The notes under the pieces were generated by a model that saw only the letters and a list, made by a program, of their open reading frames with translations, made no database searches and was not told where the DNA came from. DNA of 37,729 bases from a virus (lineage: Duplodnaviria > Caudoviricetes), in the IMG/VR virus record IMGVR_UViG_3300022862_000013, positions 1 through 37,729 of that record; one strand, given 5' to 3'. A program made the translations under genes and the position numbers. Shown in pieces: positions 925-35,338 of the stretch; position 1 is the stretch's first letter; each line of letters begins with the position of its first letter.

Positions 925-1464
925 TCAATCGGCCACGTCGGCCGAAGGCTGACCCAGTATGCCAACCAGGTCAGCGGTGATGCTGGCCAGCTGGGTCTGA
1001 AGGCGCCCGTTCTCGGCAGTAAGGCGCTTACTCTCAGCACGCAGGCGCTCGTTATCGTCCCATGCCGTGCCGCGCTCTCGAAGCGTCAAAGCATACTCCT
1101 GCTCATCCCGACTCTGCTTGGCGCGCAGGGCCGCCAACTCACGCTCGGCCACCTCTAATGCACTCTGCGACTTGCTCAGCGCCGAGCGGACCGACAGCAG
1201 GTCAGCGACTTCGGCCTGCAGCTCATCCGCCACGCCGCCAGGCGAGAGCTTGGCCAGCAAGGCGGAAACATCGGACTGGGGTCGTAGTTGCGCCAGAAGG
1301 TGCAGCGCCGCTGCCAGCTGGCAGCGCTCATCCGGCGTTACGTGTAACGGCTTAACGCCGGTGGCCTTGCGCAGCTCGCGTAACTTCTTCTGCCGTTCGG
1401 CCGGCGTCATCGCCCGAGGCGACAAGGCCAGTGCAAAGGTTTCATGGTCGAAGGGGTCAAGCAC
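925..1464 (-). CDS. Putative DNA-binding protein with a basic N-terminal helix (MTPAERQKKLR) and long C-terminal coiled coil
   Basis: GGAGA RBS, GTG start, heptad-rich C-terminus. Confidence 0.7.
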   Translation of the reverse strand: MLDPFDHETFALALSPRAMTPAERQKKLRELRKATGVKPLHVTPDERCQLAAALHLLAQLRPQSDVSALLAKLSPGGVADELQAEVADLLSVRSALSKSQSALEVAERELAALRAKQSRDEQEYALTLRERGTAWDDNERLRAESKRLTAENGRLQTQLASITADLVGILGQPSADVAD

Positions 1465-1498
1465 GTCAATTCTCCCAAGGGCGTCATGCCATGGTCGA

Positions 1499-1551
1499 AT
1501 TATATGTTGATTTGTAGATATCTACAATTGTTGTTATCTACATTTGTTGCG
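1499..1551 (-). promoter_or_regulatory. Promoter TTGTAG-N17-TATAAT overlapped by six 8-bp ATCWACAW-like units (array 1)
   Basis: Units at 1504, 1512, 1520, 1528, 1536 and 1544 in mixed orientation; -10 at 1499-1504, -35 at 1522-1527. Confidence 0.75.
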
Positions 1552-1944
1552 CATCACGTCGGCCGGCGACAGCCCGGAGTAGATGGACAGTAGGCGCCAC
1601 ACGGCATACGGCACTTCGCTGGCACCGCCCGCCCACTTGCCGATCTTGCCCGGCGACACGCCAACCAGGCGGCCCGCCTCGCTGCGGCTCAGCTGCGCAA
1701 TCCGCATCAGCTCGCGAAACTCGGCGGCACTGGGTGGCTGCCAGTCTTCGGTATACCCCTCAAACAGACCGGGGCGACCCAGGTTCAATTCATCCAGGGC
1801 CAGTGCATACGCCATTTTGCGCGGTGGGTCGCCGGCAATCTCCAGGTGATCGGCCCGGGTGCGCACCAGGGTTCGCATGGCTTCGTCCAGGTCCTTGTCT
1901 TCAAGCGGTACCCGGGTTCCGTCGTGCAACACCAATGCAAACAT
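1534..1944 (-). CDS. KorC-like HTH transcriptional repressor with N-terminal extension
   Basis: WQPPSAAEFRELM...EAGRLVGV...KWAGG..EVPYAVWRLL resembles IncP KorC; GGAGG RBS. Confidence 0.7.
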   Translation of the reverse strand: MFALVLHDGTRVPLEDKDLDEAMRTLVRTRADHLEIAGDPPRKMAYALALDELNLGRPGLFEGYTEDWQPPSAAEFRELMRIAQLSRSEAGRLVGVSPGKIGKWAGGASEVPYAVWRLLSIYSGLSPADVMRNKCR

Positions 1945-1984
1945 TCACAGCCTCCAATGCTCTACGGCGGGGTTTCCCGGCCTG

Positions 1985-2011
1985 AAAAGGCAAAGCGCGC
2001 CGAAGCGCGCT
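1985..2011 (-). terminator. Hairpin/attenuator in the leader of the korC-like gene
   Basis: AGCGCGC-TTCG-GCGCGCT followed by TTGCCTTTT on the minus strand. Confidence 0.5.
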
Positions 2012-2046
2012 AAGCCGTACTGGGGCTGATCGCCCGCAAGGGCGTG

Positions 2047-2075
2047 ACATTAAAACGCCGTCACCCCCTCGTCAA
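2047..2075 (-). promoter_or_regulatory. Sigma70-like promoter TTGACG-N17-TAATGT
   Basis: Read directly from the minus strand. Confidence 0.55.
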
Positions 2076-2395
2076 TTTGGCGCCGCTTGGACTCGGTTCG
2101 GGTGGTACTGGATCAACACGGTGTGACCGTCTTTCCAGCACGTCCAGCCCGAGGGCGACGACAGCAGCCCCACACATGCATAGTCGTGACACTGGTAGAA
2201 GCCATGAGTTTCGAGAAAGGCGCCGGCCTTCACCAGAAACACACGATCAGGGTGCATAAGGTTCGCCAGGGACGGTATGGAAAGGTACAGGCAGGGCCGC
2301 AACGGCCCGGCGGCTTCGCGGACATTGGCGCGTAGGTTGAAGTGCGCGTGAAACGCCCGCTTTAACGCGGCCACATGAGGGGCTTGCTTGGTCAT
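2072..2395 (-). CDS. Hypothetical protein (107 aa, MTKQAPH...)
   Basis: GGAG RBS before ATG 2395; promoter just upstream. Confidence 0.7.
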   Translation of the reverse strand: MTKQAPHVAALKRAFHAHFNLRANVREAAGPLRPCLYLSIPSLANLMHPDRVFLVKAGAFLETHGFYQCHDYACVGLLSSPSGWTCWKDGHTVLIQYHPNRVQAAPN

Positions 2396-2447
2396 CGGTA
2401 GAAACTCCGGTGTAAGCGGTCTTGGCGAATGCCCGACCTTGCCGCCG

Positions 2448-2503
2448 ACTCTAACGGCGACCGCTCCACGCGTCAACATTTCTACAAATCAACAATTCAA
2501 CAA
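2448..2503 (-). promoter_or_regulatory. Promoter TTGACG-N17-TAGAGT with four direct 8-bp units over and upstream of -35 (array 2)
   Basis: GTCAACAT TTCTACAA ATCAACAA TTCAACAA at 2472-2503. Confidence 0.75.
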
Positions 2504-2869
2504 AGCCGCAACCGACTTCGGAAGCCCCCACACCGCCGCAGAAGCGCCCACCGCGTCCGGTTTCGCGCGCACGGCAACCCGCCGCCTTGCCCTGGGCTGC
2601 TCGGGAACTCGCTCAGGAAGGCGCCGCAGCGCGTGCAGGACGGCAAAGAACGCGAGGCGCACCCCCTGACCTGTCCACTGGACGCGTAGCGTCCCTACCA
2701 GGCCAGCGGCCGGCGCGTGAAGAAGCGAAGGGCCGTGCGCTGCGCTTGTGTCGGGATTGGCCTTAAACGGCCCACAGCGACTGGAAGGCGCCTCACTGGA
2801 GGAACGGCGGCGGCACCGGCGGCGACCTCTGAGCCCGCGCCTACAGGCGCGAAGTGGCTCAGGCATCAT

Positions 2870-3160
2870 TGGCATAGGAGGGGTAGTTATACACATGGCA
2901 TGGTCTATGCGCTTTAAAGACCCTTTCTTAGCTCCTTCGGTACCACTCCACAGCATGTTTTGCATATGTTTAAAACCCGATCAGCTCGGGTTGGGCTCGC
3001 GCGCGCGATCGGGGATGCCCCCGCCGCCGGCAGGGGGTAAGCGAGGGTGAAAATGAGGGGTGTGCAGGTGGTGCGAGGGGGAATATGGCGGTAAATCGGG
3101 GGGAGGTTTGCAGCAGACGTGCGAAAGCACCGCCGGTGGCGGTGCAGCTCGACGCGGGCG
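2870..3160. other. Putative replication origin and CIS-like spacer downstream of repA
   Basis: DnaA box TTATACACA at 2887-2895; AT-richer tract ~2885-2975; C-rich, G-poor minus-strand tract ~3030-3110. Confidence 0.6.
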
Positions 3161-4060
3161 TCAGGTCTGGATAGGGTGTCGGGCGAAGTGCGGATACTTC
3201 TTGACGAACTCGCGGCTTAGCTGCGGCTCACGCAAGCCAGTGTCGACGATGAACGCGGCAAACGTGCGCTGCCACTGCTCGTTGTAGTCCGCCTGGATGC
3301 CTTGCTGCTCACGGCGATCACGCTCTTGCCGGGCGCGCTTGGCACCTTCATGGGATTGTTTGCGCTCACGGGCGCCGGCCAGGTCGGCCAGGGCTTCGGC
3401 CTTGGCCACGGCGCTGTGCTTGTCCACGGCTTTCTTGAGCTTGGCCTTCATGGCGGTGCGCGCCTGGGCCAGCAGGTGCCCCAGGCCAAGGTCGATGAAG
3501 AACTGCGCACGCACGTTAATAGTGGTGCGGGTGATCCATTGCTTGCCGTTGTGGAAGATGCGGCGCTGCTTGCGGCGGATGTACTTCGCCGCCTCCAGGT
3601 CGCCCAGCAGGCGCGAGACGGTCCACTCGTTAACCCCGGAGTCCTCCGACAGGCCGCGCTGGCGATTCAGCCGGTACTCACCGTTCTGGTAGTAGCCCAG
3701 GATCATGGTCGACAGGTCCAGGCGAGCCAGCAGCGGCCCGGCGATGCGCGCCAAGGTGTCCCACTTTTGCTGATAGGTGCGGTAGCCTGCCGGGCTTAGG
3801 CAGTCCATCCGGCGCAGCCAGCGGGTCTGACGGTTCTTGGCTTCTTCTTGGATGCGCTCTTCGGCCTTGCCCAGCAAGCCGTCAAAAACGAATTTCTGCT
3901 TGTCCGAGAGGCCACGCAGGCGCCGTGGCTGCTGCGCACGGTCGACGGTGCCCACCGGCTTGCGGCGCTTGACGGAACGCGGGGGGATGTTGGCCAGGCC
4001 ATTGAACTGGGCGCCCCGCACCGAGTTGGCGAGGACGGTACGCACGGGCGCGAGCTTCAT
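3161..4060 (-). CDS. repA: Plasmid replication initiator, IncFII RepA-like winged-helix protein
   Basis: HTH-like QRGLSEDSGVNEWTVSRLLGDLE and TTINVRAQFFIDLGL motif; flanked by antisense RNA, leader peptide and origin. Confidence 0.7.
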   Translation of the reverse strand: MKLAPVRTVLANSVRGAQFNGLANIPPRSVKRRKPVGTVDRAQQPRRLRGLSDKQKFVFDGLLGKAEERIQEEAKNRQTRWLRRMDCLSPAGYRTYQQKWDTLARIAGPLLARLDLSTMILGYYQNGEYRLNRQRGLSEDSGVNEWTVSRLLGDLEAAKYIRRKQRRIFHNGKQWITRTTINVRAQFFIDLGLGHLLAQARTAMKAKLKKAVDKHSAVAKAEALADLAGARERKQSHEGAKRARQERDRREQQGIQADYNEQWQRTFAAFIVDTGLREPQLSREFVKKYPHFARHPIQT

Positions 4061-4179
4061 TCGCTCACCCCATGCAGCAGACGCGCGTTACGCGTCACGG
4101 TATCCGGGCGGTTCCCGGGCCGGTTACAGGTGCACGGAATGGCCGCGCAGCCTGCGAGAGAGGCCTTGCCAAACATCAT
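4057..4179 (-). CDS. 40-aa leader peptide translationally coupled to repA (Tap-like)
   Basis: GGGGA RBS; MMFGKASLAG...LLHGVSE; its TGA overlaps the repA ATG (ATGA). Confidence 0.7.
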   Translation of the reverse strand: MMFGKASLAGCAAIPCTCNRPGNRPDTVTRNARLLHGVSE

Positions 4180-4198
4180 GTTTCCCCATATCTGGGGC

Positions 4199-4227: not shown

Positions 4228-4233
4228 CTCACC

Positions 4234-4311
4234 TTGTCGCGGTCGAGAACCTATATGGTTGCTCCGATCTCAAAACCCCGAGGATGCCAGTCCTGCGGGG
4301 TTTTTCTTTTT
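4234..4311 (+). ncRNA. Counter-transcribed copy-number control RNA (~78 nt, CopA/Inc-like)
   Basis: Promoter, 5' stem-loop, intrinsic terminator AAAACCCCG-AGGA-loop-TCCT-GCGGGG-TTTTTCTTTTT (4272-4311); lies in the rep leader. Confidence 0.75.
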
Positions 4312-4387
4312 AAGCCTGCCTTGAATTCCATTCTTTTTGCGTTATCTGGTGCTGTCCAGCCCTCTAGCGGGGCGGTCAACGGCGCTC

Positions 4388-4427
4388 AGGATAACGCGGT
4401 CTAACGTGTCAGTCCACTAATTGTGTA
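4388..4427 (-). promoter_or_regulatory. rep promoter TGGACT-N17-TATCCT with operator TCCACTAATTGTGTA (4413-4427) over -35
   Basis: Operator matches those in the cI/cro interval. Confidence 0.6.
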
Positions 4428-4611
4428 AATTACCACAGCGCACAAAACGCGTGGCGCCCAGCGCCATTTGCAGCTGGTAAACCTCACCTGGGTGCGCCTG
4501 GGGGTCCAGGTTCTTTTGAATTACCATCCACTCCAGGTGCTTACACAATGCATCGATAGTAGACGCTTGGTCTGGATGGATCAAAGGGTTTGCGTTCTCC
4601 GCGTGCGACAT
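4417..4611 (-). CDS. 64-aa protein under an SOS box; candidate antirepressor
   Basis: AGGAGG RBS at 4621-4626; LexA box upstream; function inferred. Confidence 0.7.
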   Translation of the reverse strand: MSHAENANPLIHPDQASTIDALCKHLEWMVIQKNLDPQAHPGEVYQLQMALGATRFVRCGNLHN

Positions 4612-4668
4612 GGGGGTGTCCCTCCTACTGATGCCGGCTTTTTCGCATTCTAGCCGGAAGCCATTTAA

Positions 4669-4684
4669 CTGGATACACATACAG
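4669..4684. promoter_or_regulatory. LexA (SOS) box CTGGATACACATACAG
   Basis: CTG-N10-CAG with alternating core, matching the gammaproteobacterial consensus; intergenic. Confidence 0.8.
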
Positions 4685-4769
4685 TGTTCCAATGTAAGCG
4701 ATTGAATCTGTTAAGTGCGGAACCAGCCTAGCGCGGCACCTGCAGGCGCCGCACCTCAACCCCGTGCAG

Positions 4770-5850: not shown

Positions 5851-5864
5851 GATTTCCTCCAAAC

Positions 5865-9798: not shown

Positions 9799-10440
9799 CT
9801 AATCCTCGTAGCCAGCCACCGAGGCCGGCAACACGTAATGAACGGCGTGAAACAACTCATCAACACAGGCCGCAATGCCTTCAACCTCGGCACGGCCATA
9901 GCCGATTTCAACGTCGGTATATTCGGGCGCCTCAAGGCGCAGCCTGCATTCCATGGCAGCGGCTTCGGCGGTGCCATATGCCGCCAGCGGTGCCGAGGCG
10001 ACCCATGCCCACGGCCAGCCATCGCCATACAGAAAATCGCCGGTGACAGTCGGGCCGACCCGGGCCGGGCGGAATTCTTCAATCGTTACCGTAACGCCGG
10101 CCTGCTTGGCCAAGCGGCGGTAGTACGCCACTTGAGGCGCGCCAGAGGCAGTCAGTTTGTCCAGCACGGCCTGCCGGCGCTGCTCAAGCGTCTGCGATCC
10201 CGGAACGGTGCAGGCGTCCGGCAACTCCAGATAGTCCTCCCAGTCAGTCAGCAGCGCGCTGACCGTGGCGGGGTTCATCTCCAGTTGCAGCTCATCCAGC
10301 GCCACGTCAACCCGTGCCAGCTCAGGCGCCAGGCTGTCCAGCAACTGCGCCACATCAGGCTGCAATTCCGGGTCAAAGGCTGGCCCAGGTGGCAGCAGTC
10401 CGCGCAGCCCCTCGCGGTAGTCATCCTCGGTCATAGCCAT
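9799..10440 (-). CDS. Baseplate wedge protein (YmfQ/DUF2313, Mu gp48-like)
   Basis: LLPPGPAF and LLTDWE..LELPD motifs; synteny. Confidence 0.85.
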   Translation of the reverse strand: MAMTEDDYREGLRGLLPPGPAFDPELQPDVAQLLDSLAPELARVDVALDELQLEMNPATVSALLTDWEDYLELPDACTVPGSQTLEQRRQAVLDKLTASGAPQVAYYRRLAKQAGVTVTIEEFRPARVGPTVTGDFLYGDGWPWAWVASAPLAAYGTAEAAAMECRLRLEAPEYTDVEIGYGRAEVEGIAACVDELFHAVHYVLPASVAGYED

Positions 10441-11474: not shown

Positions 11475-11850
11475 TGATCAAGCTCCATGTGTCTTCAAAG
11501 GCCAGCTGCAGGGTTTCGCCGTTCGACTCGGTAAGCCGCACCTGCAGGTTGACCCGGTTAATGTCTTGCCGCTCGACCGTGACCGTAACGGCGGTGACAA
11601 TCTCGTCCTCGGTCATCCAGCGCAGCGCCTCTTCGGCGTATTCCTGCGCATCGCGCAGGGTGTCCGGGGTGATGGCCCGGCGCTGCAGTAGCCACAGTCG
11701 CGAGCCGATCTGATCGCCAGGCGCTGTGGGCACGCTGTCTCCCCACCAGCCCTTGCGGTCGGCATCGTCCAGCTGGTCGTCAGCACCGGCGCGGCGCCAG
11801 GTGAAAAGACTGATGGTCACCGCCCTGCGCAACAGCGCTTCGCGGCTCAT
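11464..11850 (-). CDS. Mu gp46-like baseplate protein
   Basis: GWWGD and IGSRLWLLQR motifs. Confidence 0.9.
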   Translation of the reverse strand: MSREALLRRAVTISLFTWRRAGADDQLDDADRKGWWGDSVPTAPGDQIGSRLWLLQRRAITPDTLRDAQEYAEEALRWMTEDEIVTAVTVTVERQDINRVNLQVRLTESNGETLQLAFEDTWSLINAV

Positions 11851-14728: not shown

Positions 14729-16646
14729 TGGTGCCTCCCATGGTCCGACGACCAACGTTCTGCGGCGTTACGGTCACGCCAGGTTGACTACTCTTGGCCC
14801 CCTCCAGCCGCGTGCCCGGTGGCGCGCCCTCAAACAGCACACGCAACTCACCGTTCAGCTGGGTTTTTCCGGCTGCCGCCGAAGACTGCCGAAGCAGCGA
14901 ACCCGGATCGGGCAGCTGACCCGGCGCCTTGAGCAGCGCACCGGGGGTGATGCCGAATTGCTGGGCGCGTTGCTCCTGGGCGGCCTTGACCTTCGCGCCG
15001 GCATTCGCCACCAGGAAATCGCCCGTGCCGCCACCTTCACCTGCATTGCGGCGCTTCTGCGCATCGGCCATTTGCGTCACCCTTGCGGTGATACCAGGCC
15101 CGCCATCTTCCAGGCCCATGAACTTCAACAGCGGCTCAATGTAGGGCTTGATACCCTCCCACAGCTCTTTGAACCAGGCACTGATTGGCCCCCAGTGCTT
15201 GATGATCTGACCTAATGGCGTCCATTCAAAAAAGGTCTTCATCATGTCCATCACTGGCACCGCCGCTGCCCGGATCAAATCCCACAAAGCAGTGAAGAAA
15301 GGCCCGACCTTCTCCCAGTTGGCGACGATCAGGCCGGCGGCGGCCGCGATACCTACCGCGATCAGACCGACCGGAGTAGCCGCGAAGGCCACGCCCAGCA
15401 AGCGGGTGGCCACTGTGGCGGCGAATACCGCCGCGCGCAGTGCGGTAAACGCCGCGCCGGCGATGACGATGCCGCGCACCAGCTGGGGGTTGTCCCGCAC
15501 CAATTGCGCCGCCTGCGAGATCCAGGGGCGCAGCTGGTTAACCACAGCGTTAATGCCCGGCAGCAAGGCGTCACCGACCTCGCGGGCCACACCCATCACG
15601 CTATTGCGCAGCAGCTGCAGGTTGTTCGCCGTGGTCGCGGCCCGTGCCGCATATTCCTTTTCCATGGAGCCGGCGTATTTCTGCGCGTCGCTGACCTTTT
15701 CCAAGTTGCCGCGCAGCAGCTCCAAGTTGGTCAGCAGCGGCGTGATGGCCCCAATGGACTCGGTACCGAACATTTCGGCCAGCAGCGCCGGACGCTTAGC
15801 CGCATCGACCTGACCGATACGCTTGAGCAGGTCCAGGGTGGTGCCCTGGGCGTCCTTCTGCATGTTCTCGGCCACCGTCTTGGAATCCAGCCGAAGCGAC
15901 TTGAATGCCTGCGCTTGGCCCTTGGTGGCCGCCGTTCCTTTGGTCATGGCCAACATGAAGTTCTTGATGCCTGTGGCCGCCACATCCTGCTTGACGCCTA
16001 CCCCGGCCATGGTTGCACCGATGGCCGCCACCTGGGCTGACGACATGCCGGCCACTTCGCCCAGCGCGCCGACCTCGGTGACAATGGCGGAAATCTGTTT
16101 GGTGTTGGCCGGGCCGGTGTTGCCGAGGTAGTTGATACGGTCAGCCAGTCCGATCACCTCGGCCTGATTCATGCGAAACGCGGTTCGCCACTTGGCCATC
16201 ATGTCGCCGGACTCGTCGGCAGTCTGGTCGAACGCGATGCCCATCTTTACCGCCGCGTCGGCAAAGCCCAGCAGCTCATTGCGGGCAATGCCCGATTGCC
16301 CCCCGGCCGCGACGATCTTGGCAATGTCCGTCGCGGCCATGGGTAATCGTTCAGACATCCGGCCAATGTCGTCGCCCATCTTCTTGAACTGGTCAGGTGA
16401 ATCGAAGTCGACCACCTTGCGCACGTCAGCCATCTGCGACTCGAAGTCGATAGCCGCGCGCGCACCGGCAATAAACGGGGCCGCCATGGCCCCACCGGTG
16501 ACGATATCGCTCCAGCCGATCTTACCCAGGCCAGTGCTTTCCAAGTTCTTGCGGAACGCGGCAATGTTCTTACGCGCCCCCGCCAGGGTCGGTGACAGCT
16601 TGTCGACGCCGGTGATCAGCGCTTTGAGCTGAAACTTGTCAGCCAT
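14721..16646 (-). CDS. Tape measure protein
   Basis: AIDFESQMADVRKVVDF; long helical Ala-rich protein; synteny. Confidence 0.92.
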   Translation of the reverse strand: MADKFQLKALITGVDKLSPTLAGARKNIAAFRKNLESTGLGKIGWSDIVTGGAMAAPFIAGARAAIDFESQMADVRKVVDFDSPDQFKKMGDDIGRMSERLPMAATDIAKIVAAGGQSGIARNELLGFADAAVKMGIAFDQTADESGDMMAKWRTAFRMNQAEVIGLADRINYLGNTGPANTKQISAIVTEVGALGEVAGMSSAQVAAIGATMAGVGVKQDVAATGIKNFMLAMTKGTAATKGQAQAFKSLRLDSKTVAENMQKDAQGTTLDLLKRIGQVDAAKRPALLAEMFGTESIGAITPLLTNLELLRGNLEKVSDAQKYAGSMEKEYAARAATTANNLQLLRNSVMGVAREVGDALLPGINAVVNQLRPWISQAAQLVRDNPQLVRGIVIAGAAFTALRAAVFAATVATRLLGVAFAATPVGLIAVGIAAAAGLIVANWEKVGPFFTALWDLIRAAAVPVMDMMKTFFEWTPLGQIIKHWGPISAWFKELWEGIKPYIEPLLKFMGLEDGGPGITARVTQMADAQKRRNAGEGGGTGDFLVANAGAKVKAAQEQRAQQFGITPGALLKAPGQLPDPGSLLRQSSAAAGKTQLNGELRVLFEGAPPGTRLEGAKSSQPGVTVTPQNVGRRTMGGTNE

Positions 16647-17471: not shown

Positions 17472-18956
17472 TTACACCTGATACTGCAGGCGGAACTGGT
17501 ACTGCAGCGCGAACACCCGCAACTGGTTCACCAGGTCCGGCGGATAGAGCACGTTGACGCGGGTCGGATCGGTCAGCGAGCGCTCCACCACCAGGTTCTG
17601 GGCGAAGGCCTCGGCGTTCTCCACGATGCCCATTTGCTCAAGGATGTAATACCCGGCGATCAGCTCGGCACGGATCACCGCCGGGGTGACGATGGCCTGG
17701 CCAGCACCGAAGCGGGTACCGTCGTTGGCCAGCTTGTGGCGGCCATACTTGCTGGTAATGCGCCCCTTGAGGAAGCGGATGATGTAGGCCGACTGGTGCA
17801 GTGTTTCGCTGTCCAGATAGGAGTTGTCCGCCTGCCCGTAGTCGTTCTTCTGGTAGGTGGTCACCGCCCGCTCGATGCGCTGGGTGCCGCTGGAGCAGTA
17901 CGCCGTGGCAATGCCGTGGCTCAGCAGCGATTGGCGCTCCAGCAGCATGAAGCGCTCGCCCGCCGGCGCCGGGGTAATTTTGTTCATCTCGCCGGTTTGC
18001 GTCGGTCGCGCCGGGTCCGCCGAGATAAACACCGCCTGCCGCGCCGCGTAGGCCGCCGCCTGCCGCCATACCGGGTCCGGGCTGGGTTTCTCAAAGCCGT
18101 ACACGGTGACGTGCGCGTCGTTGCGAGTGTCGCCCAAGGCCACCAGCTCACCCAGCGTGCCGCGCGAAGCCGTGTAAACATGGCCATACAGCTGCCGCGA
18201 CCAGCTCCAGCGCCCGGTGCTGTCGTTCATCAAGGCTTTCCAGGCATCCAGCGAGGTGGCATCGGCCCACGGCCCACACAGGAACTCGAACGGCTCATCA
18301 CCCAGCACGGCAATGGCGGCCGCCACATCAGGCGTCCCCACGCCGCCGGCCATGGCCGTTACGGTAACGGTCAGCCCATCCGGGGTGAATTCACCGTTGA
18401 CCCGGCCTTGACGGTTCAACTGCAGCTGAATGTCGTTGCCACTCAAGCCAGCCCAGCGGCAGGACAGGGTAACTTCACCGGTCGCCGCTACCGCCGACAC
18501 CGACAGCCCGGCCGCGTTAACCGCCGCTGCCAGCGCTGTCGCGGCGGCCGCTGCCGTGGCGCCACTGCTGATGGTGGCCCGCACGCGCTGGCCGGCCACG
18601 TACAGGTTGATCTGGCCGCCGGCCGTGGCGGTACCCACAAAGGCCACCTTTCCGGTCGCCTTGGTGCCCGTGGCCTTGACCGGCAGGCACCACACCTCCC
18701 CGGCCGGGTCAATGGCACGCCAGGTGTCGTACATCTCGGCCAGCATCGAGCCGACGCCGCCGATGCTCTTGGCCAGGCTCAGGCTGGGAACCAGCGTCAG
18801 CTTGCCGATTTCCGGGGCCACGGAATCATCGTTGACCTGACCGACGATCAGCCGCGGCATCGCACTGGTCGCCGTGTTGGCCTGGCTGTTGTCGACCTCG
18901 GCATAGAACAGCGGCACCTTGAGGTCGCTGGGAACGCTACTGAAGCTCACAGACAT
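17472..18956 (-). CDS. Contractile tail sheath (Mu gpL-like)
   Basis: VPLFYAEVDNS, DPARPTQT and PPDLVNQLRVFA motifs. Confidence 0.95.
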   Translation of the reverse strand: MSVSFSSVPSDLKVPLFYAEVDNSQANTATSAMPRLIVGQVNDDSVAPEIGKLTLVPSLSLAKSIGGVGSMLAEMYDTWRAIDPAGEVWCLPVKATGTKATGKVAFVGTATAGGQINLYVAGQRVRATISSGATAAAAATALAAAVNAAGLSVSAVAATGEVTLSCRWAGLSGNDIQLQLNRQGRVNGEFTPDGLTVTVTAMAGGVGTPDVAAAIAVLGDEPFEFLCGPWADATSLDAWKALMNDSTGRWSWSRQLYGHVYTASRGTLGELVALGDTRNDAHVTVYGFEKPSPDPVWRQAAAYAARQAVFISADPARPTQTGEMNKITPAPAGERFMLLERQSLLSHGIATAYCSSGTQRIERAVTTYQKNDYGQADNSYLDSETLHQSAYIIRFLKGRITSKYGRHKLANDGTRFGAGQAIVTPAVIRAELIAGYYILEQMGIVENAEAFAQNLVVERSLTDPTRVNVLYPPDLVNQLRVFALQYQFRLQYQV

Positions 18957-20262: not shown

Positions 20263-20653
20263 AAGCACCTCCATCTGGCTCAGGTGGGAACACGCCGCCG
20301 CCCGCCTCTGTCGCCTCGCCCAGCTCTTCGACCTCCAGCACCGAAAAGCGCCGGTTGTCCAAGTCACCCACCCGGCGCACGCGGTAGATGATGTCGACGC
20401 CCTCAAACGTCTCGACCACTTCGTGCGCGTCGGTGATGCCCCGGCGAAAGCGCAGGGTTATCCGGTGCGTGACGGTCACGCCGGCCTGCACCGAGCCGCT
20501 GTAAATGGCGCTGCCGACTTGCTGGACCTTGGCCCAGCACTTCGGCGCGTAGTCATACGCCGACTCGATGCCCGGCCCGTCCGTCTTGGCCGTGTCCGAG
20601 CGCACGCGCAAACGCACCTGGCGATTCAGCTCGCCAATGCTGGGTGGGTTCAT
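20249..20653 (-). CDS. Head closure protein
   Basis: IGELNRQV, WAKV and THRITLRFR motifs. Confidence 0.85.
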   Translation of the reverse strand: MNPPSIGELNRQVRLRVRSDTAKTDGPGIESAYDYAPKCWAKVQQVGSAIYSGSVQAGVTVTHRITLRFRRGITDAHEVVETFEGVDIIYRVRRVGDLDNRRFSVLEVEELGEATEAGGGVFPPEPDGGAYGYV

Positions 20654-24269: not shown

Positions 24270-25976
24270 TCACATGACCAGTAGGTCGTCAGGTTCGAGG
24301 GTGTCGAGCACCGAGGTGGGCAGGCCGTCGGCCAAAATGGAGCGGTTCATGGCCATGAGGATGGCCACCATGCCGTCGATCTTGTTGCCCTTGGATTCCT
24401 TGGTGGGCATCAGGCAGCCTTTGAATTCATGGGCCACCACGTTGCCGGCCATCCAGGCCAGCACCGGGTCACCGTCATGGCGGATACGGCCGGACAACAA
24501 CGCCGCTTCAAACTCGCGCATGGCAATGTTCATGGTCTGAATGCCGCCGCCGACCTCGACCACCTGCGCACCGTCCTTCTGCAACTGGTGCGACAGCTGG
24601 GTGGCACGCCACTTGTCATAGGCGACTTCGACAATCTGATGCTGGCCGGCAATCTCGCGGATTTCCTCGCGGATCACGTCAAAGTCAAGCTCTTCACCCT
24701 CGGTGGTCAGCAGCCGACCTTCGTTGACCCAGCGCTCATAGGCATCCTGATTGACACCTTCGTCGCTCTCCACCGCCCCTTCGGGCAGGTAGTGGCGGAC
24801 AAAGAACGTCCAAATGTCCCGGCCGCGACTGTCTTTTTCCCGGTGCACCAGGGCGACACAGGCAATGTCGCACTTGCTGGCCAAGTCCATGCCGAGGTAA
24901 CAGCGCTTGCCGTAGTAGTCAGCCACGGTAAGGCCTTCGACCTTGGCACGGTCCCAGTGCAGCAGGTTGAGCCAGGCGTTTTTCGCATGCACCCACAGGT
25001 TGCAATGCTTGGTCTTGAACGCATTCTGCCGTGACGGGTAACGCGTGGCGTTGGCCAACTGCCGCTCCAGGTAGTCCGCATTCACGGAAACGCCGAAGTT
25101 GGGGTTGGCCTTCTTCAAGGCCGCCAGGTCGCGCCAGTCGTCCTTCTCGTCCAGCGTGTAGATGATGCCGAACAGCTCGTCGTTGGCCGGGCGCTGATCG
25201 AGCATGGCAATGACCTGCCGGCGCTTCTCGTAGCACGGCCCGGCAATGTTGTTGCCCGAGGTGGTGATGGTGAACATCAACGGCTGCTCACGGGCGCCCA
25301 TGCCGGTCAGCATGGTTTCGTACAGGGCATCGCTGTCGTGCTCGTGGTACTCATCCACCAGCGCGCAGTTGGGCGACGATCCGTCGCCGGGGTCGCCAAT
25401 GACCGGTTCCAGGCGGCTGCCGTCATCCGGGCAATACAGGCTGCGCGCGCGCACCTCAATGCCGGCGTCTTCGGCCAGCTCTTCGGTACGCTGCACCATC
25501 AACTGAGCCGGGCGGAACACTTCCCACGCCTGCTTCTCGGTGGTCGCACCGCAATACACTTCGGCGCCGAACTCACCGTCGGCGCACAGCATGTATAGGG
25601 CCACCCCGGCGGCAATGACCGACTTGCCGTTCTTGCGCGGAATCTCGCAATAGACTTCGGTGAAGCGCCGTAGGCCGGTCTTTTTACTGACCCAGCCGAA
25701 CACGCAACAGAAGATGAACTGCTGCCAGGGCTCCAGCTTGAGGCGCAGTTTCATGCGGCCCCACTTGCCCTTGGTATGCGGCAGCTCTTGCACGAACAGA
25801 CACACCCGCTCGGCTTGGGCCTTGTTGAACTTCCATTTGAAGCCCTTGGCCTTGCTCGCCTCCAGGTCGTCCAGGTGCCGCTGGCAGGCTTGGCGCACGT
25901 ACTTGCACGCCTCGATCTTGCCGGCCACCACGTCACGGGCGTACTTGTTCGCGCCATTGACATTGACGTTGGCCAT
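24270..25976 (-). CDS. terL: Terminase large subunit (cos type)
   Basis: PRKNGKS Walker A, LVDEYH Walker B, GMDLA and KIDG nuclease motifs. Confidence 0.97.
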   Translation of the reverse strand: MANVNVNGANKYARDVVAGKIEACKYVRQACQRHLDDLEASKAKGFKWKFNKAQAERVCLFVQELPHTKGKWGRMKLRLKLEPWQQFIFCCVFGWVSKKTGLRRFTEVYCEIPRKNGKSVIAAGVALYMLCADGEFGAEVYCGATTEKQAWEVFRPAQLMVQRTEELAEDAGIEVRARSLYCPDDGSRLEPVIGDPGDGSSPNCALVDEYHEHDSDALYETMLTGMGAREQPLMFTITTSGNNIAGPCYEKRRQVIAMLDQRPANDELFGIIYTLDEKDDWRDLAALKKANPNFGVSVNADYLERQLANATRYPSRQNAFKTKHCNLWVHAKNAWLNLLHWDRAKVEGLTVADYYGKRCYLGMDLASKCDIACVALVHREKDSRGRDIWTFFVRHYLPEGAVESDEGVNQDAYERWVNEGRLLTTEGEELDFDVIREEIREIAGQHQIVEVAYDKWRATQLSHQLQKDGAQVVEVGGGIQTMNIAMREFEAALLSGRIRHDGDPVLAWMAGNVVAHEFKGCLMPTKESKGNKIDGMVAILMAMNRSILADGLPTSVLDTLEPDDLLVM

Positions 25977-25982: not shown

Positions 25983-26468
25983 TTACCGATCCTTAGGAGC
26001 CAGCAACCCGGCGAAGCGGCCCTTAGCCTTGTTCTTCGGCACGGTCAGGCGCGCCCGGCTGGCCGGGTCAAGGCCAAGCGAACTGCCGTAGCTGGTCATT
26101 TGCCGCATGGCCTCATTGGCCACGGTACAGGCGGGGTTCTTGCTGCGACCCATCGGCGTCTTAATCGTGATGCCGTTACGCGTAACGTCTTCTTCGGCTT
26201 CACGCCACCGACCATAGGCCGAACAGAAACCCTCCAGCACGTGCAGGTCGGTGCGCGTCAGAACCTTGGACTCGACCAGCTCGGGTGCGAGCTTGGTCCA
26301 CATCTGCTGCGCGTATTCGCCCATCCACTCGGGCGGCGGTGGTGCGATCACCAGGGCGGTGTAGTCCGGCTCGGCATCGTTGAGCTTGCGTTTGCCGGGG
26401 TTGCCGGCGGCGCGCTTCTGCGCGGTCGGCTTAGGTTTTCGGCCTCCGCCGGGGGCGCGCGTCGCCAT
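25983..26468 (-). CDS. terS: Terminase small subunit, P27 family
   Basis: GRKPKPT, GNPGKRKLN and LGLDPASRARL motifs. Confidence 0.95.
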   Translation of the reverse strand: MATRAPGGGRKPKPTAQKRAAGNPGKRKLNDAEPDYTALVIAPPPPEWMGEYAQQMWTKLAPELVESKVLTRTDLHVLEGFCSAYGRWREAEEDVTRNGITIKTPMGRSKNPACTVANEAMRQMTSYGSSLGLDPASRARLTVPKNKAKGRFAGLLAPKDR

Positions 26469-27583: not shown

Positions 27584-27615
27584 AAACCGCTCCCCTGATC
27601 ACTCGCCGTTACGCG

Positions 27616-27996
27616 TCACGCGTCCACCGTAGGGATGCGCAGCTTCCAGGCGGTCGGTGTGTGCAGACAAGCCAGCTCCCCCTTGAATGCTCCTTTGCAC
27701 CCTTCCGGTAGCACCTTGCCGCACTGCTGGCACGGGTACTTCTGCGCATCAGCAATCTGCCCCTTGAGTCGGGCGGCATCCTCGCGGATCAGGGCTACCA
27801 GGTACTCTTCCAGCTCGTAGGCCTCCCCCACTCCCGAGCGGGTCGCCATGGAAGACTCCAGCTCACTGGCGATGGTCGGGGGCAGCTTAAAGCGAACCTC
27901 CTTCACCCCGCCCGCCTTCAACTTTGCCCGGCGCCTCTGCTGACGCTTGGTGCCTGGCTTTACCTTGTCGTTACGCGTAACGCCTTGTTCACTCAT
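27616..27996 (-). CDS. Basic helix + RHH-like protein with C-terminal Cys4 Zn-finger; candidate reader of the dispersed palindromes
   Basis: KRQQRRRAKLK-EVRFKL-helix-EEYLVALIRED; CQQC..C..C. Confidence 0.7.
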   Translation of the reverse strand: MSEQGVTRNDKVKPGTKRQQRRRAKLKAGGVKEVRFKLPPTIASELESSMATRSGVGEAYELEEYLVALIREDAARLKGQIADAQKYPCQQCGKVLPEGCKGAFKGELACLHTPTAWKLRIPTVDA

Positions 27997-28622: not shown

Positions 28623-29909
28623 TCAAACGGCGCTCAAGGCCGCGTGCGGGTTGGCTTGGTGGTCGGTGCCGCTTGCGGCCTGTCCCGGTGATGTCTCGAT
28701 GGCAAAAAAAGAGAGGCCATGCGTTTCCAGGCAGGCGTGCCAGCGCTGCAGGGCCTCGCGTTTCAGTACCTGGGCATGGGTGTGGATATAGGCGGCGTCG
28801 AGGTCGCGCAGCGCGTGGTTCAGCAGCAGCTCGCCAATCAGGTAATCCACGCCGAGGTCGGCCCACATCGTCCTGGCGATCTTGCGCAGGTCGTGCGCAC
28901 TCCACTCCCCGCCAAACAACGCCACCTTGTCCTGGGCTTGGCGGTCGGCTAGCGGCTGACCATCACCACGCGGGAACAGGTACACACCGCGATAGCCGGC
29001 CAGGTGCTGCCAGTGGCGGTAAGCCTTGAGCATGGCCAGCACCGGAGCCGTCAGCGGCAGGCGATGGTCAGCCCGGGTCTTGGTCTGGTCGGCCGGCAGG
29101 AACCACTCCCCGCCCTCCACCAGGTCAAAGTCACTCCACTTGGCCAGGGTGGTTTCGTGAATGCGGGTGCCATGGCAAAGCATCAGCAGCACCAACATGG
29201 CGGCCTTCACATCGCGCACCCACAGCTCGGTCGCCTTGCTGATGATTTCGGGCAATTGCTGCGGACGAATGGCGCACGGTTTCGGGCGAATCCGCACCTC
29301 GGTGAAGTCACTGAACACCACGTCGCCCAGTGGGTTGATGGTCAGCTTTTTGAGCTTCTTGGCACGCTTGAAGGCTTGTTTGAGCAGGGCAAAGGCTTGG
29401 CGGGTATAGGCCAGGCTGCGCACCTCCTGCATGGGCCAAATAAGCCGTTCATCCACCGACTCCCCGTCAACGTCCACCAGGTTTAAGGAACTCAGGCGCG
29501 GCAGCAGCTGACAGTTGATCAGTGAGCGGATGTTGTCACGGCGGTTCTTGGACAGGCCACGGTCGACGGCCGCGCGCTCATTGAACCAGGTCAGCAGGTC
29601 ACCCACCCGCACCCAACCCGCCGCACCGATCATGGCCGATGGGTCGGCGGTCAGTTCGGCCAACTTGACCGGCATCAGCTCGATGGCAGCCTTAACGGGC
29701 AGGTCGGGCCAGTTGGCGATTTTCTTCGATTGGCTCTTGCCGCCGCCATGACGCACCAGTAGCCAAGAGGCCCGGTTACGGTCACGGCCGAAGCGCAGCA
29801 TGAGGGGTGGGTAGCGAGGGTCGCGCACCTGGCGCACCTCGGGCAGGCCAGCGAGGCGCTTGATTTCGGCTTCGCTGAATTTGACGTGCTGGGTCTGACT
29901 GGGGGTCAT
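28623..29909 (-). CDS. Tyrosine recombinase (integrase/resolvase)
   Basis: Intact R (GTRIHE), K, HDLR, H and Y (AAY) catalytic set; N-terminal arm-type domain. Confidence 0.92.
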   Translation of the reverse strand: MTPSQTQHVKFSEAEIKRLAGLPEVRQVRDPRYPPLMLRFGRDRNRASWLLVRHGGGKSQSKKIANWPDLPVKAAIELMPVKLAELTADPSAMIGAAGWVRVGDLLTWFNERAAVDRGLSKNRRDNIRSLINCQLLPRLSSLNLVDVDGESVDERLIWPMQEVRSLAYTRQAFALLKQAFKRAKKLKKLTINPLGDVVFSDFTEVRIRPKPCAIRPQQLPEIISKATELWVRDVKAAMLVLLMLCHGTRIHETTLAKWSDFDLVEGGEWFLPADQTKTRADHRLPLTAPVLAMLKAYRHWQHLAGYRGVYLFPRGDGQPLADRQAQDKVALFGGEWSAHDLRKIARTMWADLGVDYLIGELLLNHALRDLDAAYIHTHAQVLKREALQRWHACLETHGLSFFAIETSPGQAASGTDHQANPHAALSAV

Positions 29910-30645: not shown

Positions 30646-30648
30646 GGT

Positions 30649-31077
30649 TTACTCCTGAGGGGTCGTTTTCGGCGAGCGGAACTGCCCGGCCGGGGTGAAC
30701 AGCGCGGTTTCAAGGTCCGCACCTTTGGCCATGCGCTTGCGCACGGTGGAAGCGGTCACGCTCAGGCCGAAGTGCTCGATCAGCTGGGCGATGGTGCCGT
30801 GACTGTCACGCACCGTGTGGCTGTACATGGCTCGGGTGGCTGCACCGGCCTTGTCGCGCACCGCGCGCAGGTGGTCCGGGCAATGGCCTTTTATGGATTC
30901 GTAATAGCGGCGCTGGTCGACACTGCGGCCGGGGCCTACCCACTGCACATCCTGCAGGGTGCTAAGGATGCGCATGAAGCGCGCGTAGCGAATGCCGAGC
31001 GCCTGGAACACGGCTGTGCGGCTGAGCCCGCGAGCGGCTGAGGCCCGCATATAGCGCTCAACTTCGGCCGTGGTCAT
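30649..31077 (-). CDS. Hypothetical HTH-like DNA-binding protein
   Basis: TVRKRMAKGADLETALFTP motif; ATGA coupling. Confidence 0.7.
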   Translation of the reverse strand: MTTAEVERYMRASAARGLSRTAVFQALGIRYARFMRILSTLQDVQWVGPGRSVDQRRYYESIKGHCPDHLRAVRDKAGAATRAMYSHTVRDSHGTIAQLIEHFGLSVTASTVRKRMAKGADLETALFTPAGQFRSPKTTPQE

Positions 31078-32296: not shown

Positions 32297-32350
32297 ATTA
32301 GGCAAATATTGACACGGCCCCGGATTCACCGGCCGCCTGAGAGAGTGAGC

Positions 32351-33016: not shown

Positions 33017-33033
33017 GTCGTTTCGCCACACCC

Positions 33034-33057
33034 AAAGCCCCGTTAAGGGGCTTTTTT
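33034..33057 (+). terminator. Intrinsic terminator after cI
   Basis: AAAGCCCC-gttaa-GGGGCTTTTTT. Confidence 0.85.
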
Positions 33058-33069
33058 GATGGCTCAATA

Positions 33070-33084
33070 TACACTTTATGTGTA
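33070..33084. promoter_or_regulatory. OL-like operator TACACTTTATGTGTA
   Basis: Identical to 32258-32272. Confidence 0.8.
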
Positions 33085-33126
33085 TTCTGCCACGCATCTC
33101 AGGAACGGCAGGACGGATACCTTCCC

Positions 33127-33378
33127 ATGCACGGCAGCATTACCCCAGACCCAGTAGCATCAACCCTTGTCACCTGCTCTCCGCAAGCGATCCAGGCCAA
33201 CCAACAACGACTGCTGGTGGTGCGCGAGGTCGGCAGTCTCAGCGCCGGCATCACAGCCATTGCTGACCAGTGCTGCAACGAGGGGTACGCACCCATGGAA
33301 AGCCTGGAAAACATCCTGCACCTGTCCCGGCAAATGTCGCGCGCCCTTGCCCAGCTGGGTATTGCCCTGTCCGACTGA
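33127..33378 (+). CDS. Hypothetical early protein (83 aa)
   Basis: First ORF after the OL-like operator. Confidence 0.65.
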   Translation: MHGSITPDPVASTLVTCSPQAIQANQQRLLVVREVGSLSAGITAIADQCCNEGYAPMESLENILHLSRQMSRALAQLGIALSD

Positions 33379-33404
33379 ACCACCTTCGCAAGGATGCACC
33401 CGCA

Positions 33405-33812
33405 ATGAACGCTGTCATGGAAGTCACCGGCGAAGACGTGCTGGGCCTGCCTGGCCAAACGCTGACGCTCGAAGAACTGAATACATTGGTTGGCCTGGCC
33501 GACGGCATCCCCACGGTGAAGCTGGCCCAGCAATTGGGTTTGGATGAACACACCATTGGCCAGATTGAGCGCGCCATTCAGCGCAAGCTGGGCGCGCGCA
33601 ATCGCCTGCATATGATCACCCGTGGCTTTACCCTTGGCGTACTGGTACCGCGAGCACTGTGCCTGATGCTATGCGTGATATCGGCCCTTGAGGTTGACCA
33701 TGACTTGTTTCGTCAGCGCTTCCAGCGCCGCCCGCGCACCAATAACGAAGTGGTCCGCATTGTCCGCATTTCCCCCGGTGCCAGCGCTGGCAACGCCCCT
33801 CTGTACGGCTGA
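33405..33812 (+). CDS. LuxR-type HTH transcriptional regulator
   Basis: LTLEELNTLVGLADG...LAQQLGLDEHTI...IQRKLGARNR; AAGGA RBS. Confidence 0.8.
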   Translation: MNAVMEVTGEDVLGLPGQTLTLEELNTLVGLADGIPTVKLAQQLGLDEHTIGQIERAIQRKLGARNRLHMITRGFTLGVLVPRALCLMLCVISALEVDHDLFRQRFQRRPRTNNEVVRIVRISPGASAGNAPLYG

Positions 33813-33817
33813 CGCCG

Positions 33818-33929
33818 CGCTACAAATCTACATATCTACAATTCGATAATTGTTGAACGCCATCAGGCGCAGCCCTATACTGCGCCCAATCGCTGGAATG
33901 TTGATTTCTACATTTGTAGCTATCAACAT
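33818..33929 (+). promoter_or_regulatory. par promoter TTGAAC-N17-TATACT flanked by two 8-bp-unit arrays (33818-33857, 33898-33929); putative centromere/operator
   Basis: 5 + 4 phased units of the ATCWACAW type. Confidence 0.85.
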
Positions 33930-33953
33930 GGCGCCTTGAATGGAGTTCACCCT

Positions 33954-34598
33954 ATGTCGATCCGCGTTGCTATGGCCGGCCAAAAAGGCGGCGTAAAGAA
34001 GTCTGCCACCGCGCGAGCCATTGCCGCCGCGTTTTCCACCGCTGGCATGAATGTACTGATTGCCGACTTTGACCCGCGCCAAATGACCAGCACGAACTGG
34101 AACCTGCGCCGCCAGGCACGCTTCCCCGACCTGCCAGCCATTACCGCCAAGCCCTATGCCAGCGTGGCGCAGGTGATGCGTGAAGTGGACGACTATGACG
34201 TGGTGATCTTCGACCCGGGCGCCTTCGCCTCGCAGATCATGGTGGAAGCCGCCGGCCATGCCCATTGCGTGATCCTGCCGACCGCCGCCGGACTGGATGA
34301 CCTAGAACCCACCGTAGACCTTGCCAATGACCTGGCACAGCGCGGCGTAGAGCCCCAGCGCATCGTGTTTGCCCTGCACCCGGCCGGTGACAGTGACAGC
34401 GAGCTGGCAGCCGCTCGCGAATACCTCGGCCACACCCCGTATGCGACACTAGACGGCTATATCCCACAGAAAACCATCTACAGCATGGCGCACGACCTTG
34501 GCTTGTCGGTGATCGAAGCCCGCAGCCCAGGTCCACGCCAGAAAGCCGAGAAGCTGATTCAGTCGGCCATCAACACCATAAGCGCACTGACAAATTAA
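33954..34598 (+). CDS. parA: ParA-family partition ATPase (type Ib)
   Basis: GQKGGVKKS, IADFDPRQ and VIFDPG motifs; no N-terminal HTH. Confidence 0.92.
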   Translation: MSIRVAMAGQKGGVKKSATARAIAAAFSTAGMNVLIADFDPRQMTSTNWNLRRQARFPDLPAITAKPYASVAQVMREVDDYDVVIFDPGAFASQIMVEAAGHAHCVILPTAAGLDDLEPTVDLANDLAQRGVEPQRIVFALHPAGDSDSELAAAREYLGHTPYATLDGYIPQKTIYSMAHDLGLSVIEARSPGPRQKAEKLIQSAINTISALTN

Positions 34599-34608
34599 GG
34601 AACACCCC

Positions 34609-34848
34609 ATGACTGTCGAAATCCCTAAAGCGCTCGCCAAGAAGAGCACCAAAGCATCGGTCAAGGGTACCCCGGCCAACATCAAGCCGTTGGAACCTGC
34701 GGCCGCTAAGACCAAAAGCCCGCTTAACGTCCAGCTGGATACCCAGCTGAAAACCGCCATCGCCATCGAAGCGGCGCAACGCGGCATCACCATGACCAAG
34801 CTGCTGGGCGAGATGTGGGACGCTTACGAGGAAAAGAAGCACCGCTGA
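34609..34848 (+). CDS. Ribbon-helix-helix centromere-binding protein (ParG/omega-like)
   Basis: Flexible basic N-terminus plus PLNVQLDTQLKTAIAIEAAQRGITMTKLL; follows parA. Confidence 0.85.
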   Translation: MTVEIPKALAKKSTKASVKGTPANIKPLEPAAAKTKSPLNVQLDTQLKTAIAIEAAQRGITMTKLLGEMWDAYEEKKHR

Positions 34849-34862
34849 TGCAACGCCCAAAC

Positions 34863-34888
34863 AAAAGCCCCGCAGTGCGGGGCTTTTT
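34863..34888. terminator. Bidirectional terminator
   Basis: AAAAGCCCCGC-agt-GCGGGGCTTTTT between convergent operons. Confidence 0.9.
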
Positions 34889-34904
34889 ATTACTCGCGTG
34901 ACCG

Positions 34905-35144
34905 TCACGACTCAACCTGAAACGCCATGATGCCCAGCGAGCGGGTGAACTTCTCTAGGGTGTCCAAACTGGCCCAGGTGCGCGGGCTCTCGCGCTTTGA
35001 GCGAATCGGTACCCAGTTCAGGCCACGACGCGCTGCCAGCTGCCAGCGCTGGCCGTCCTCGGTGCGCTTCACCAGGAACTCGCGCGCCGCCTGGCTCTCG
35101 ACCAGCAATGCCAGCTCGCTTTCATAGTACGCAGAACGCGCCAA
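34905..35144 (-). CDS. Small protein resembling the plasmid ParC / IncN KorA family
   Basis: RSKRESPRTWASLDTLEKF..SLGI..F.V motif, recognised by eye. Confidence 0.55.
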   Translation of the reverse strand: MARSAYYESELALLVESQAAREFLVKRTEDGQRWQLAARRGLNWVPIRSKRESPRTWASLDTLEKFTRSLGIMAFQVES

Positions 35145-35146
35145 AC

Positions 35147-35338
35147 CTAACCCCTTCGTGATGAGTGATGCCCGGCCTTGGCCGTGCCGACATGCTGCCC
35201 GCGCTTTTGCGAGCCGTCACGCATGATCACCCGATTATCGCCGTTACGCGTCACGCGTACTATCTCGGCTGTTTCATCCACCTTTCGAAAGCCCTGCTGC
35301 TCCAGCTGCTTCAGGGTCATACGCTGAATCGGGGTCAT
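35147..35338 (-). CDS. Hypothetical protein (63 aa, MTPIQR...)
   Basis: GGAG RBS; operon coupling. Confidence 0.75.
   Translation of the reverse strand: MTPIQRMTLKQLEQQGFRKVDETAEIVRVTRNGDNRVIMRDGSQKRGQHVGTAKAGHHSSRRG

Follow-up and report, generated by a model that had tools for sequence, protein, structure and literature searches.

A dispersed palindrome that marks the DNA of a Pseudomonas-type phage-plasmid, and a phage protein predicted to read it much as MatP reads matS

The viral genome IMGVR_UViG_3300022862_000013 (37,729 nt; the whole stretch that was analysed, hereafter the window) is a Pseudomonas-type phage-plasmid carrying 14 exact copies of the palindrome CGTKAC-N1/2-GTMACG. The palindrome marks the phage-plasmid's own DNA, and the DNA itself is under selection at these sites. 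Its cognate binder is very probably the product of gene 27616-27996, here called p536, a predicted ribbon-helix-helix (RHH) dimer that would read the palindrome much as MatP reads matS. For the role of the bound protein we favour, with a probability of roughly 0.4, a reading in which p536 docks on the sites as a MatP-like genome organiser or as a shield against complexes of the structural maintenance of chromosomes (SMC) class.

The palindrome and selection on its DNA

The first-pass annotation, made from the sequence of the window, had reported 14 exact copies of the palindrome, mostly inside genes. All of them are present, seven with a 1-nt spacer and seven with a 2-nt spacer; 11 lie wholly within genes, two lie over stop codons (27607 and 34897) and one is intergenic (4086). 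Scanning the window for spacers of 0 and of 3-7 nt returned no exact copy. The near-copy noted at 29774 also exists and is the only site with one mismatch for spacers of 0-4 nt, so the consensus, a symmetric palindrome, is sharp. The peptides read across the copies (VTVT in five of them, and VTRN, RDSH, RYPSR and PLHVT) are encoded as claimed.

1336..1349, no strand: site, 2-nt spacer, inside gene 925-1464, PLHVT
4086..4099, no strand: site, 2-nt spacer, intergenic, 27 nt upstream of rep
10084..10096, no strand: site, 1-nt spacer, baseplate gp48-like gene, VTVT
11578..11590, no strand: site, 1-nt spacer, baseplate gp46-like gene, VTVT
14766..14778, no strand: site, 1-nt spacer, tape measure gene, VTVT
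18357..18369, no strand: site, 1-nt spacer, tail sheath gene, VTVT
20468..20480, no strand: site, 1-nt spacer, head closure gene, VTVT
25030..25043, no strand: site, 2-nt spacer, large terminase codons 312-316, RYPSR, with silent positions frozen in relatives
26174..26187, no strand: site, 2-nt spacer, small terminase, VTRN
27607..27620, no strand: site, 2-nt spacer, stop codon of p536, a position conserved family-wide
27969..27982, no strand: site, 2-nt spacer, p536 codons 5-9, the likely start codon in many relatives
29774..29786, no strand: near-copy (one mismatch), 1-nt spacer, tyrosine recombinase gene, RDRN
30798..30810, no strand: site, 1-nt spacer, gene 30649-31077, RDSH
34897..34909, no strand: site, 1-nt spacer, stop codon of gene 34905-35144, facing parG
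35242..35255, no strand: site, 2-nt spacer, gene 35147-35338, VTRN

The number of copies expected in the window, previously put at about 0.02, was recomputed as 0.022 (base frequencies) to 0.057 (5th-order Markov model). A codon-shuffled control that preserves the proteins, proposed with the first-pass annotation, was run 2000 times genome-wide over 55 hand-picked genes with gene starts chosen by hand, and gave a mean of 0.33 copies and a maximum of 3, against the 11 observed wholly in genes; for a looser core (11/12 bp) the mean was 1.4 and the maximum 5, against 12 observed. GTT and GTA, the valine codons described as disfavoured, are indeed minority codons in the window (97 and 67, compared with 435 GTG and 212 GTC). 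Site density is ~40 per 100 kb, or one about every 2.5 kb, and the largest site-free stretch (5998 nt) runs from 4.1 to 10.1 kb, as had been noted. Spacing is slightly more even than random, with P values of 0.02-0.11 in four of five related genomes and 0.50 in the fifth.

A caveat to any constraint on the DNA was that five copies encode VTVT. For four of the five virion genes concerned (sheath, tape measure, gp48 and head closure), no aligned orthologue contains this peptide, which answers the caveat; among gp46 orthologues VTVT occurs in two of five, both times together with the motif. Synonymous-site conservation, the other comparison that had been proposed, was followed in 21 large-terminase genes from site-bearing relatives, where a single codon is used at 20 of 209 invariant degenerate codon columns. 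Four consecutive single-codon columns (CGT TAC CCG TCA, with CGT and TCA being minority codons) make up the site. Nine other aligned loci encode R/QYPS without the site, and the four of them that were tested (L005, L010, L012 and L020) are without a p536 gene. The positions of the sites turn over between relatives, and pPAC1.3b, which has different head and tail modules, has its 15 sites elsewhere, with its transposon segment free of them. The codon shuffles, the absence of VTVT from orthologues and the frozen silent codons of the terminase bear out the proposed DNA-level constraint, a signal strong enough to rewrite the sequences of virion proteins.

The palindrome was also compared between phage and host DNA. 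In three Pseudomonas genomes the phage holds 8, 10 and 5 copies of the 12-bp core and the remaining 5-7 Mb hold 9, 6 and 17, while a reversed-pattern control was found 52, 30 and 42 times. The host chromosomes thus carry 1-3 cores per Mb, fewer than the control; depletion on these chromosomes is tentative, because the reversed pattern is not composition-matched. In E. coli K-12 the core occurs at 13 scattered places and the control at 28, and three of the 13 fall in what we take to be the terminus region. One chromosome carries an apparently truncated copy of this type of phage (G003:C7, ~80-102 kb); it gave no rep, par or repressor matches and has kept seven sites.

The p536 family and its predicted fold

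The candidate binder had been named in the first-pass annotation by its coordinates, and proved well chosen: in phages from several host genera its gene and the site occur together.

27616..27996, minus strand: candidate binder p536, 126 amino acids, phrog_536, at the end of the cro operon, ahead of the holin gene

The protein matches the phrog_536 profile over its full length (E 2e-27), including a conserved CxxC...C...C knuckle. The family comprises 143 clusters at 50% identity and has phage and plasmid matches from enterobacteria, Vibrio, Aeromonas and Pseudomonas, which are hosts known for Muk/Mks-type SMC complexes. N15 gene 46 and epsilon15 gp49 are matched by the family member P0110, and phiKO2 gp45 also belongs to the family; in these genes, as in that of p536, the site lies on the stop codon or after it. 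A literature search, with most subscription papers outside its scope (including the original N15, epsilon15 and MatP-structure papers), found no description of the palindrome or of a MatP-like phage binder, and none of a function or site for N15 gp46, epsilon15 gp49 or phiKO2 gp45 (PHROG 536).

The site follows the p536 gene closely. In 19 viral loci with the gene, a site is found at its 5' end in 19 of 19 and also just past the stop codon in most. All 22 whole genomes with the gene hold at least two sites, and in 19 of the 22 a site lies no more than 30 nt from an end of a p536 gene (chance 0.7-7% each); 16 of these use the stop codon or an annotated start, and three depend on a start codon chosen by the analyst. 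Epsilon15, N15, ZF40, AH07, Yersinia 201.16, PE002A and VPHZ6 all have a site on or just after the stop codon of the family gene. Three Aeromonas phages with the gene carry the site variant GTGACCGGACAC, which was added post hoc after being seen, since Aeromonas 32 and AhyVDH1 had scored zero at first; Aeromonas 32 has four copies of it and AhyVDH1 three, one on the AhyVDH1 stop codon.

In addition, 50 of 80 loci were picked through the terminase, chosen for long contigs (nearly all >27 kb) with 30 dropped. The two records with a p536 gene hold the most two-spacer cores (6 and 5), while the 48 without it hold none (39 records), one (7), two (1) or three (1, a 63%-complete close relative). By hand calculation this association has a chance of 1 in 1225, with one of the two positives being a close relative of the window. 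Ralstonia phage Dina, which has similar head genes, showed neither a p536 match nor a core site. An unbiased scan for 4-mer palindromes picked the motif out clearly in PARCL1pr alone, since its degeneracy divides the counts.

A structure model of p536 built from 95 sequences (predicted local distance difference test score 89.7) has helices at 14-28, 40-54 and 62-84. The predicted layout is a basic helix (14-28) preceded by only ~13 residues, an RHH fold (~30-84) and a Cys4 knuckle (89-110), and the family alignment places the conserved cysteines behind the helices. Most of the top matches in structure comparison are RHH proteins, with MatP (3vea) joint first (Z 5.4, root-mean-square deviation 1.6 A, 48 residues aligned). 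With an earlier, weaker model, the longest alignment was that to MatP (81 residues, Z 3.9, root-mean-square deviation 5.5). Searching PDB chains by sequence gave only YbiI (E 0.0025), across the Cys region, and the ESM Atlas gave only clusters without names.

Profile alignment pairs p536 residues 11-68 with residues 68-122 of the MatP-like family (E 0.0006-0.0015). The MatP-like alignment used (A4) holds 18 MatP-like proteins from genomes and metagenomes, one E. coli MatP and one IncC protein; MatP diversity was thin, since matches were almost all near-identical E. coli or Shigella proteins, with others in two of 301 and three of 12 genomes. The local score of 26.5 exceeds that of 100 column shuffles (maximum 17.7), of the reversed alignment and of 32 of 33 other window proteins (7.5 for the ParG-like protein), the exception being the product of 925-1464, which has the same head. 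MatP inserts alpha4 and beta1 into the major groove of matS, as described in PMC8669397, and residues 68-122 would contain both elements. These comparisons predict that p536 is weakly homologous to the DNA-reading helix and strand of MatP, which extends the matS likeness raised in the first-pass annotation to the protein fold.

Membership of p536 in the MatP family was considered and rejected: recognition appears MatP/matS-like, yet PF06303, the N-terminal four-helix bundle of MatP, has no match in the window genome (an E. coli control was positive), and the spacer measures 1-2 nt where that of matS has 3. For PF17414, the C-terminal RHH of MatP, p536 of the window had no match at E <= 1 (for the 95 family members, among the best 25 of 61 families), and the profile alignment at E 0.0006-0.0015 lies above the shuffles. 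The matS consensus is GTGAC-RNY-GTCAC (13 bp), and PMC3603311 has true matS as not found in enterobacterial prophages; in 10.1101/2024.02.08.578905, matS density is 3-6 per 100 kb, compared with ~40 for the phage sites. The phage system and MatP-matS of E. coli and Vibrio cholerae share the half-site GTGAC/GTCAC, dispersed sites that include coding sequence, and a basic helix, RHH and long helix (in p536 predicted to match MatP 68-122). The phage site differs in its G/T at position 3 and its flanking C:G, and p536 is phage-encoded, with a Cys4 knuckle at its C-terminus and without the MatP N-terminal bundle (MatP domain layout from PMC12756933).

A further protein may link the two families. 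Locus L139 (G426:C2, 1333-1835) encodes a 123-amino-acid protein with a p536-type head and no Cys knuckle, which matches the p536 profile (P 86%) and the MatP-like profile (E 0.004), and four GTKAC-N3-GTMAC sites lie ~55-135 nt upstream of its gene. On sequence, this protein would bridge the p536 and MatP-like families, and the DNA-reading module of MatP is suggested to belong to a wider mobile-element family with spacers of 1, 2 and 3 nt.

Several related observations were made in other elements. The Vibrio phages PhiPS02 (L110:14562) and K303 (L112:19491) have one true matS-consensus site each, and PE002A, VPHZ6 and Edwardsiella and Aeromonas veronii plasmids have one related 3-spacer site each. 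IncC plasmids carry an unannotated MatP-like gene (pSN254, NC_009140.1:150008-150382; L133:2899-3273), and pSN254 showed no matS-like enrichment, with one 3-spacer site in 176 kb. A tblastn search that took E. coli MatP as query returned 761 plasmid records at E <= 10, and most of those listed show ~33% identity over residues 39-119. Matches to PF17414 occur in three genomes of one small gammaproteobacterial order (L118, L119 and L128), and the L119 gene is near resolvase-like and transposase-like open reading frames.

The window encodes a second protein with this type of head, and its earlier nomination as a candidate binder was apt, as it shares the p536 DNA-binding head.

925..1464, minus strand: second protein, p536-type basic-helix/strand head and predicted coiled coil, likely ATG start at 1410

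Aligned with the p536 profile by hhalign, it gave a probability of 61% and E 8e-5, and it has a site within its own 5' codons (1336). Proteins with this second head, which have long variable tails, are encoded in the window and in the seven further whole Pseudomonas phage-plasmids (the weakest match at E 0.012), and a scan of the 14 non-Pseudomonas genomes found none; several of their genes have a site inside or just behind them. Site counts in the eight Pseudomonas phage-plasmids run from 9 to 20, with both spacer classes present. The other 14 phages have 2-5, with at most one one-spacer site per genome; the phages of N15 gp46, epsilon15 gp49 and phiKO2 gp45 have 2-5, nearly all of them two-spacer. 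A second-head protein acting at the same sites may explain this rise. An assignment of one protein to each spacer class was also tried and is not cleanly supported (G001:C24, L096).

What the sites may do

In the reading that we favour, p536 would coat the genome about every 2.5 kb, organising the DNA or shielding it from host SMC loop extruders. The basic helix of each subunit would read one GT(G/T)AC half-site, with the paired strands lying centrally, and a Gly-containing linker may tolerate a spacer of 1 or 2 nt. The Cys4 knuckle could stand in for the N-terminal bundle of MatP as the partner-binding part, and p536 would be expressed during early lytic growth. In the Pseudomonas phage-plasmids the head and coiled-coil protein of 925-1464 may use the same sites. 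Should p536 bind the palindrome, an organising or shielding role has close to even odds; it is favoured by the intragenic, position-labile and mildly even distribution of the sites, by a density ~10x that of matS and by the structural link. A bolder version, which we regard as distinctly doubtful, would make the widespread N15/epsilon15-type family a miniature MatP with a matS-like code of its own, and the genome-wide lattice of the Pseudomonas phage-plasmids, read at two spacer lengths by one or two proteins, a private macrodomain that excludes or unloads MukBEF, MksBEF or Wadjet, as a cis-acting anti-SMC self-mark.

An orphan protein of textbook phages thereby gains a likely DNA target and a predicted fold, both directly testable with N15 in E. 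coli K-12. If the sites do exclude SMC complexes, they would provide a route for small circular phage-plasmids to persist beside Wadjet-type defences, and would be an instance of the MatP-like guarding strategy of pathogens against SMC complexes that is anticipated in PMC7617805. That source also gives a phage precedent for interfering with SMC complexes, the MukBEF inhibitor gp5.9 of T7, which is a diffusible DNA mimic, whereas p536 is proposed to be site-bound.

A number of results weigh against this reading. The MatP 3vea match is tied with unrelated RHH antitoxins at a Z score in the range that the tool calls common, Foldseek against the PDB returned nothing at E <= 0.001 for either p536 model, and the hhalign probability for the MatP-like profile is 17-29%. 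The H38-D42 segment through which MatP bridges MukE (PMC8669397) has no counterpart in p536, where the alignment begins at MatP residue 68, so the unloading chemistry of MatP cannot be assumed. The site array at L139 looks like an ordinary autoregulatory operator. PhiPS02, K303 and A051 (three of the 22 genomes) have no site near the p536 gene, and the genomes are mutually related and were chosen via p536, hence not independent. The p536 gene ends the cro operon and is likely lytic-early, and with 2-3 sites it is also present in integrase-bearing phages and linear N15, which argues against a purely plasmid role. Circular phage-plasmids of Vibrio, Aeromonas and Edwardsiella have only 2-5 sites, which weakens any rule that circular DNA needs a dense shield. 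Finally, site expansion and the second protein both coincide with the Pseudomonas lineage, which confounds the link between them.

The main rival, and a strong one, casts p536 as a regulator of transcription, with the sites serving as dispersed operators or as elongation roadblocks that set the timing of early against late expression, a serious possibility that we nevertheless lean against. RHH proteins are typically repressors, PHROG labels the phrog_536 family a transcriptional regulator, the conserved site ends the early operon, and one window site lies 27 nt before rep; all three epsilon15 sites are at gene 3' ends, two of them just before annotated terminators, and the L139 array is of promoter type. 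KorB operators of RK2, L5 stoperators and N15 sopC offer analogues in having many copies of a single site, some of them within genes, across a mobile element that encodes the reader. Their readers are helix-turn-helix or ParB proteins, in contrast to the predicted RHH protein, palindrome and variable spacer found here. Stoperators are asymmetric, oriented with transcription and placed at gene junctions, whereas the present consensus is symmetric and 11 of the 14 sites are wholly intragenic, many of them deep in structural genes. In addition, no site overlaps any of four promoter-like matches in 25.8-35.6 kb, a site on its own stop codon would be odd for autoregulation, and the lability of positions between relatives suggests that density matters more than position.

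It is improbable, although not negligibly so, that the dense Pseudomonas array serves the plasmid state, with the 925-1464 protein compacting, pairing or segregating copies and p536 secondary. The gene sits in a position that we take to be KfrA-like, the second head is present in all eight whole Pseudomonas phage-plasmids and in none of the 14 others scanned, a site is often in or just behind its gene, and more than one one-spacer site is seen only in the Pseudomonas group. However, the parts of second-head proteins that follow the head are highly variable, their head profile gives no alignment with MatP, G001:C24 has the second head yet a single one-spacer site, and the site is older than these proteins.

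That the sites are accessory sites for the same-operon tyrosine recombinase, or packaging signals, is highly improbable: in these phage-plasmids p536 has the recombinase gene upstream of it, and in several genomes a site falls within the small terminase gene or just ahead of it, but N15 has sites and no annotated integrase, and the site is common to phages with unrelated head and terminase modules. There is likewise very little chance that the sites form a dispersed centromere for ParA and ParG resembling the scattered sopC sites of N15. The window does encode ParA and a ParG-like protein, with one site 49 nt behind parG. Type Ib ParA/ParG centromeres are clustered iterons beside par, in Par-bearing elements only; the sites here are dispersed and occur in phages without annotated ParA (epsilon15, ZF40 and Yersinia 201.16), the parA promoter has CTACA repeats of its own, and comparison of the ParG-like protein with the p536 head gave no match. 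Copying of a host chromosomal signal, bound by MatP or a Pseudomonas analogue, is hardly more credible; the half-sites are identical to those of matS and PhiPS02 and K303 each have one true GTGAC-RNY-GTCAC site, but host chromosomes hold fewer cores than the reversed control, in K-12 as in Pseudomonas, and the site tracks the phage gene. A by-product of VTVT peptide composition and shared ancestry, suggested by the five VTVT copies and the 1.4 looser cores expected from the proteins alone, is refuted by the codon shuffles, the frozen silent sites, the orthologues without VTVT and the presence of copies in all frames and between genes, leaving it practically no chance.

Gene content and other features of the element

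The description of the element as a phage-plasmid is supported by a complete circular genome (127-nt terminal repeat) with a rep-type protein, ParA and a ParG-like protein. Its modules include an HK97-type head, a Mu-like contractile tail, a repressor and a tyrosine recombinase.

3161..4060, minus strand: likely replication initiator (Rep), residues 3-205 sharing ~50% identity with proteins from circular P. aeruginosa phage-plasmids
33819..33929, no strand: CTACA-type repeats before parA, likely a separate ParG centromere/operator
33954..34848, plus strand: ParA and ParG-like RHH protein, weak Pfam RHH_10 match, unrelated to the p536 head

Given the identity of Rep to P. aeruginosa phage-plasmid proteins, the host is likely a Pseudomonas. 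Downstream of rep, 2479-2495 is related in sequence to the CTACA repeats on the parA side and is a further candidate ParG centromere/operator. The tyrosine recombinase gene (28623-29909) lies within the cro operon in the window and in related phage-plasmids, not beside an att site, and its product is possibly a lytic-phase resolvase. A 233-amino-acid open reading frame at 36307-37008 resembles, by eye, a DNA methyltransferase fragment, and had no Pfam match at E <= 0.1.

Of the 27.2 kb examined, a large part is covered by soil metatranscriptome contigs from four of 24 listed runs; these contigs are uninformative on expression level, strand and lysogenic or lytic state. Between rep and the spanin genes, at ~4286-4700, short contigs from the RNA libraries are unusually deep in two runs (118x and 39x, contig depth being a poor measure), possibly reflecting a small RNA present in abundance or else the small gene 4417-4608.

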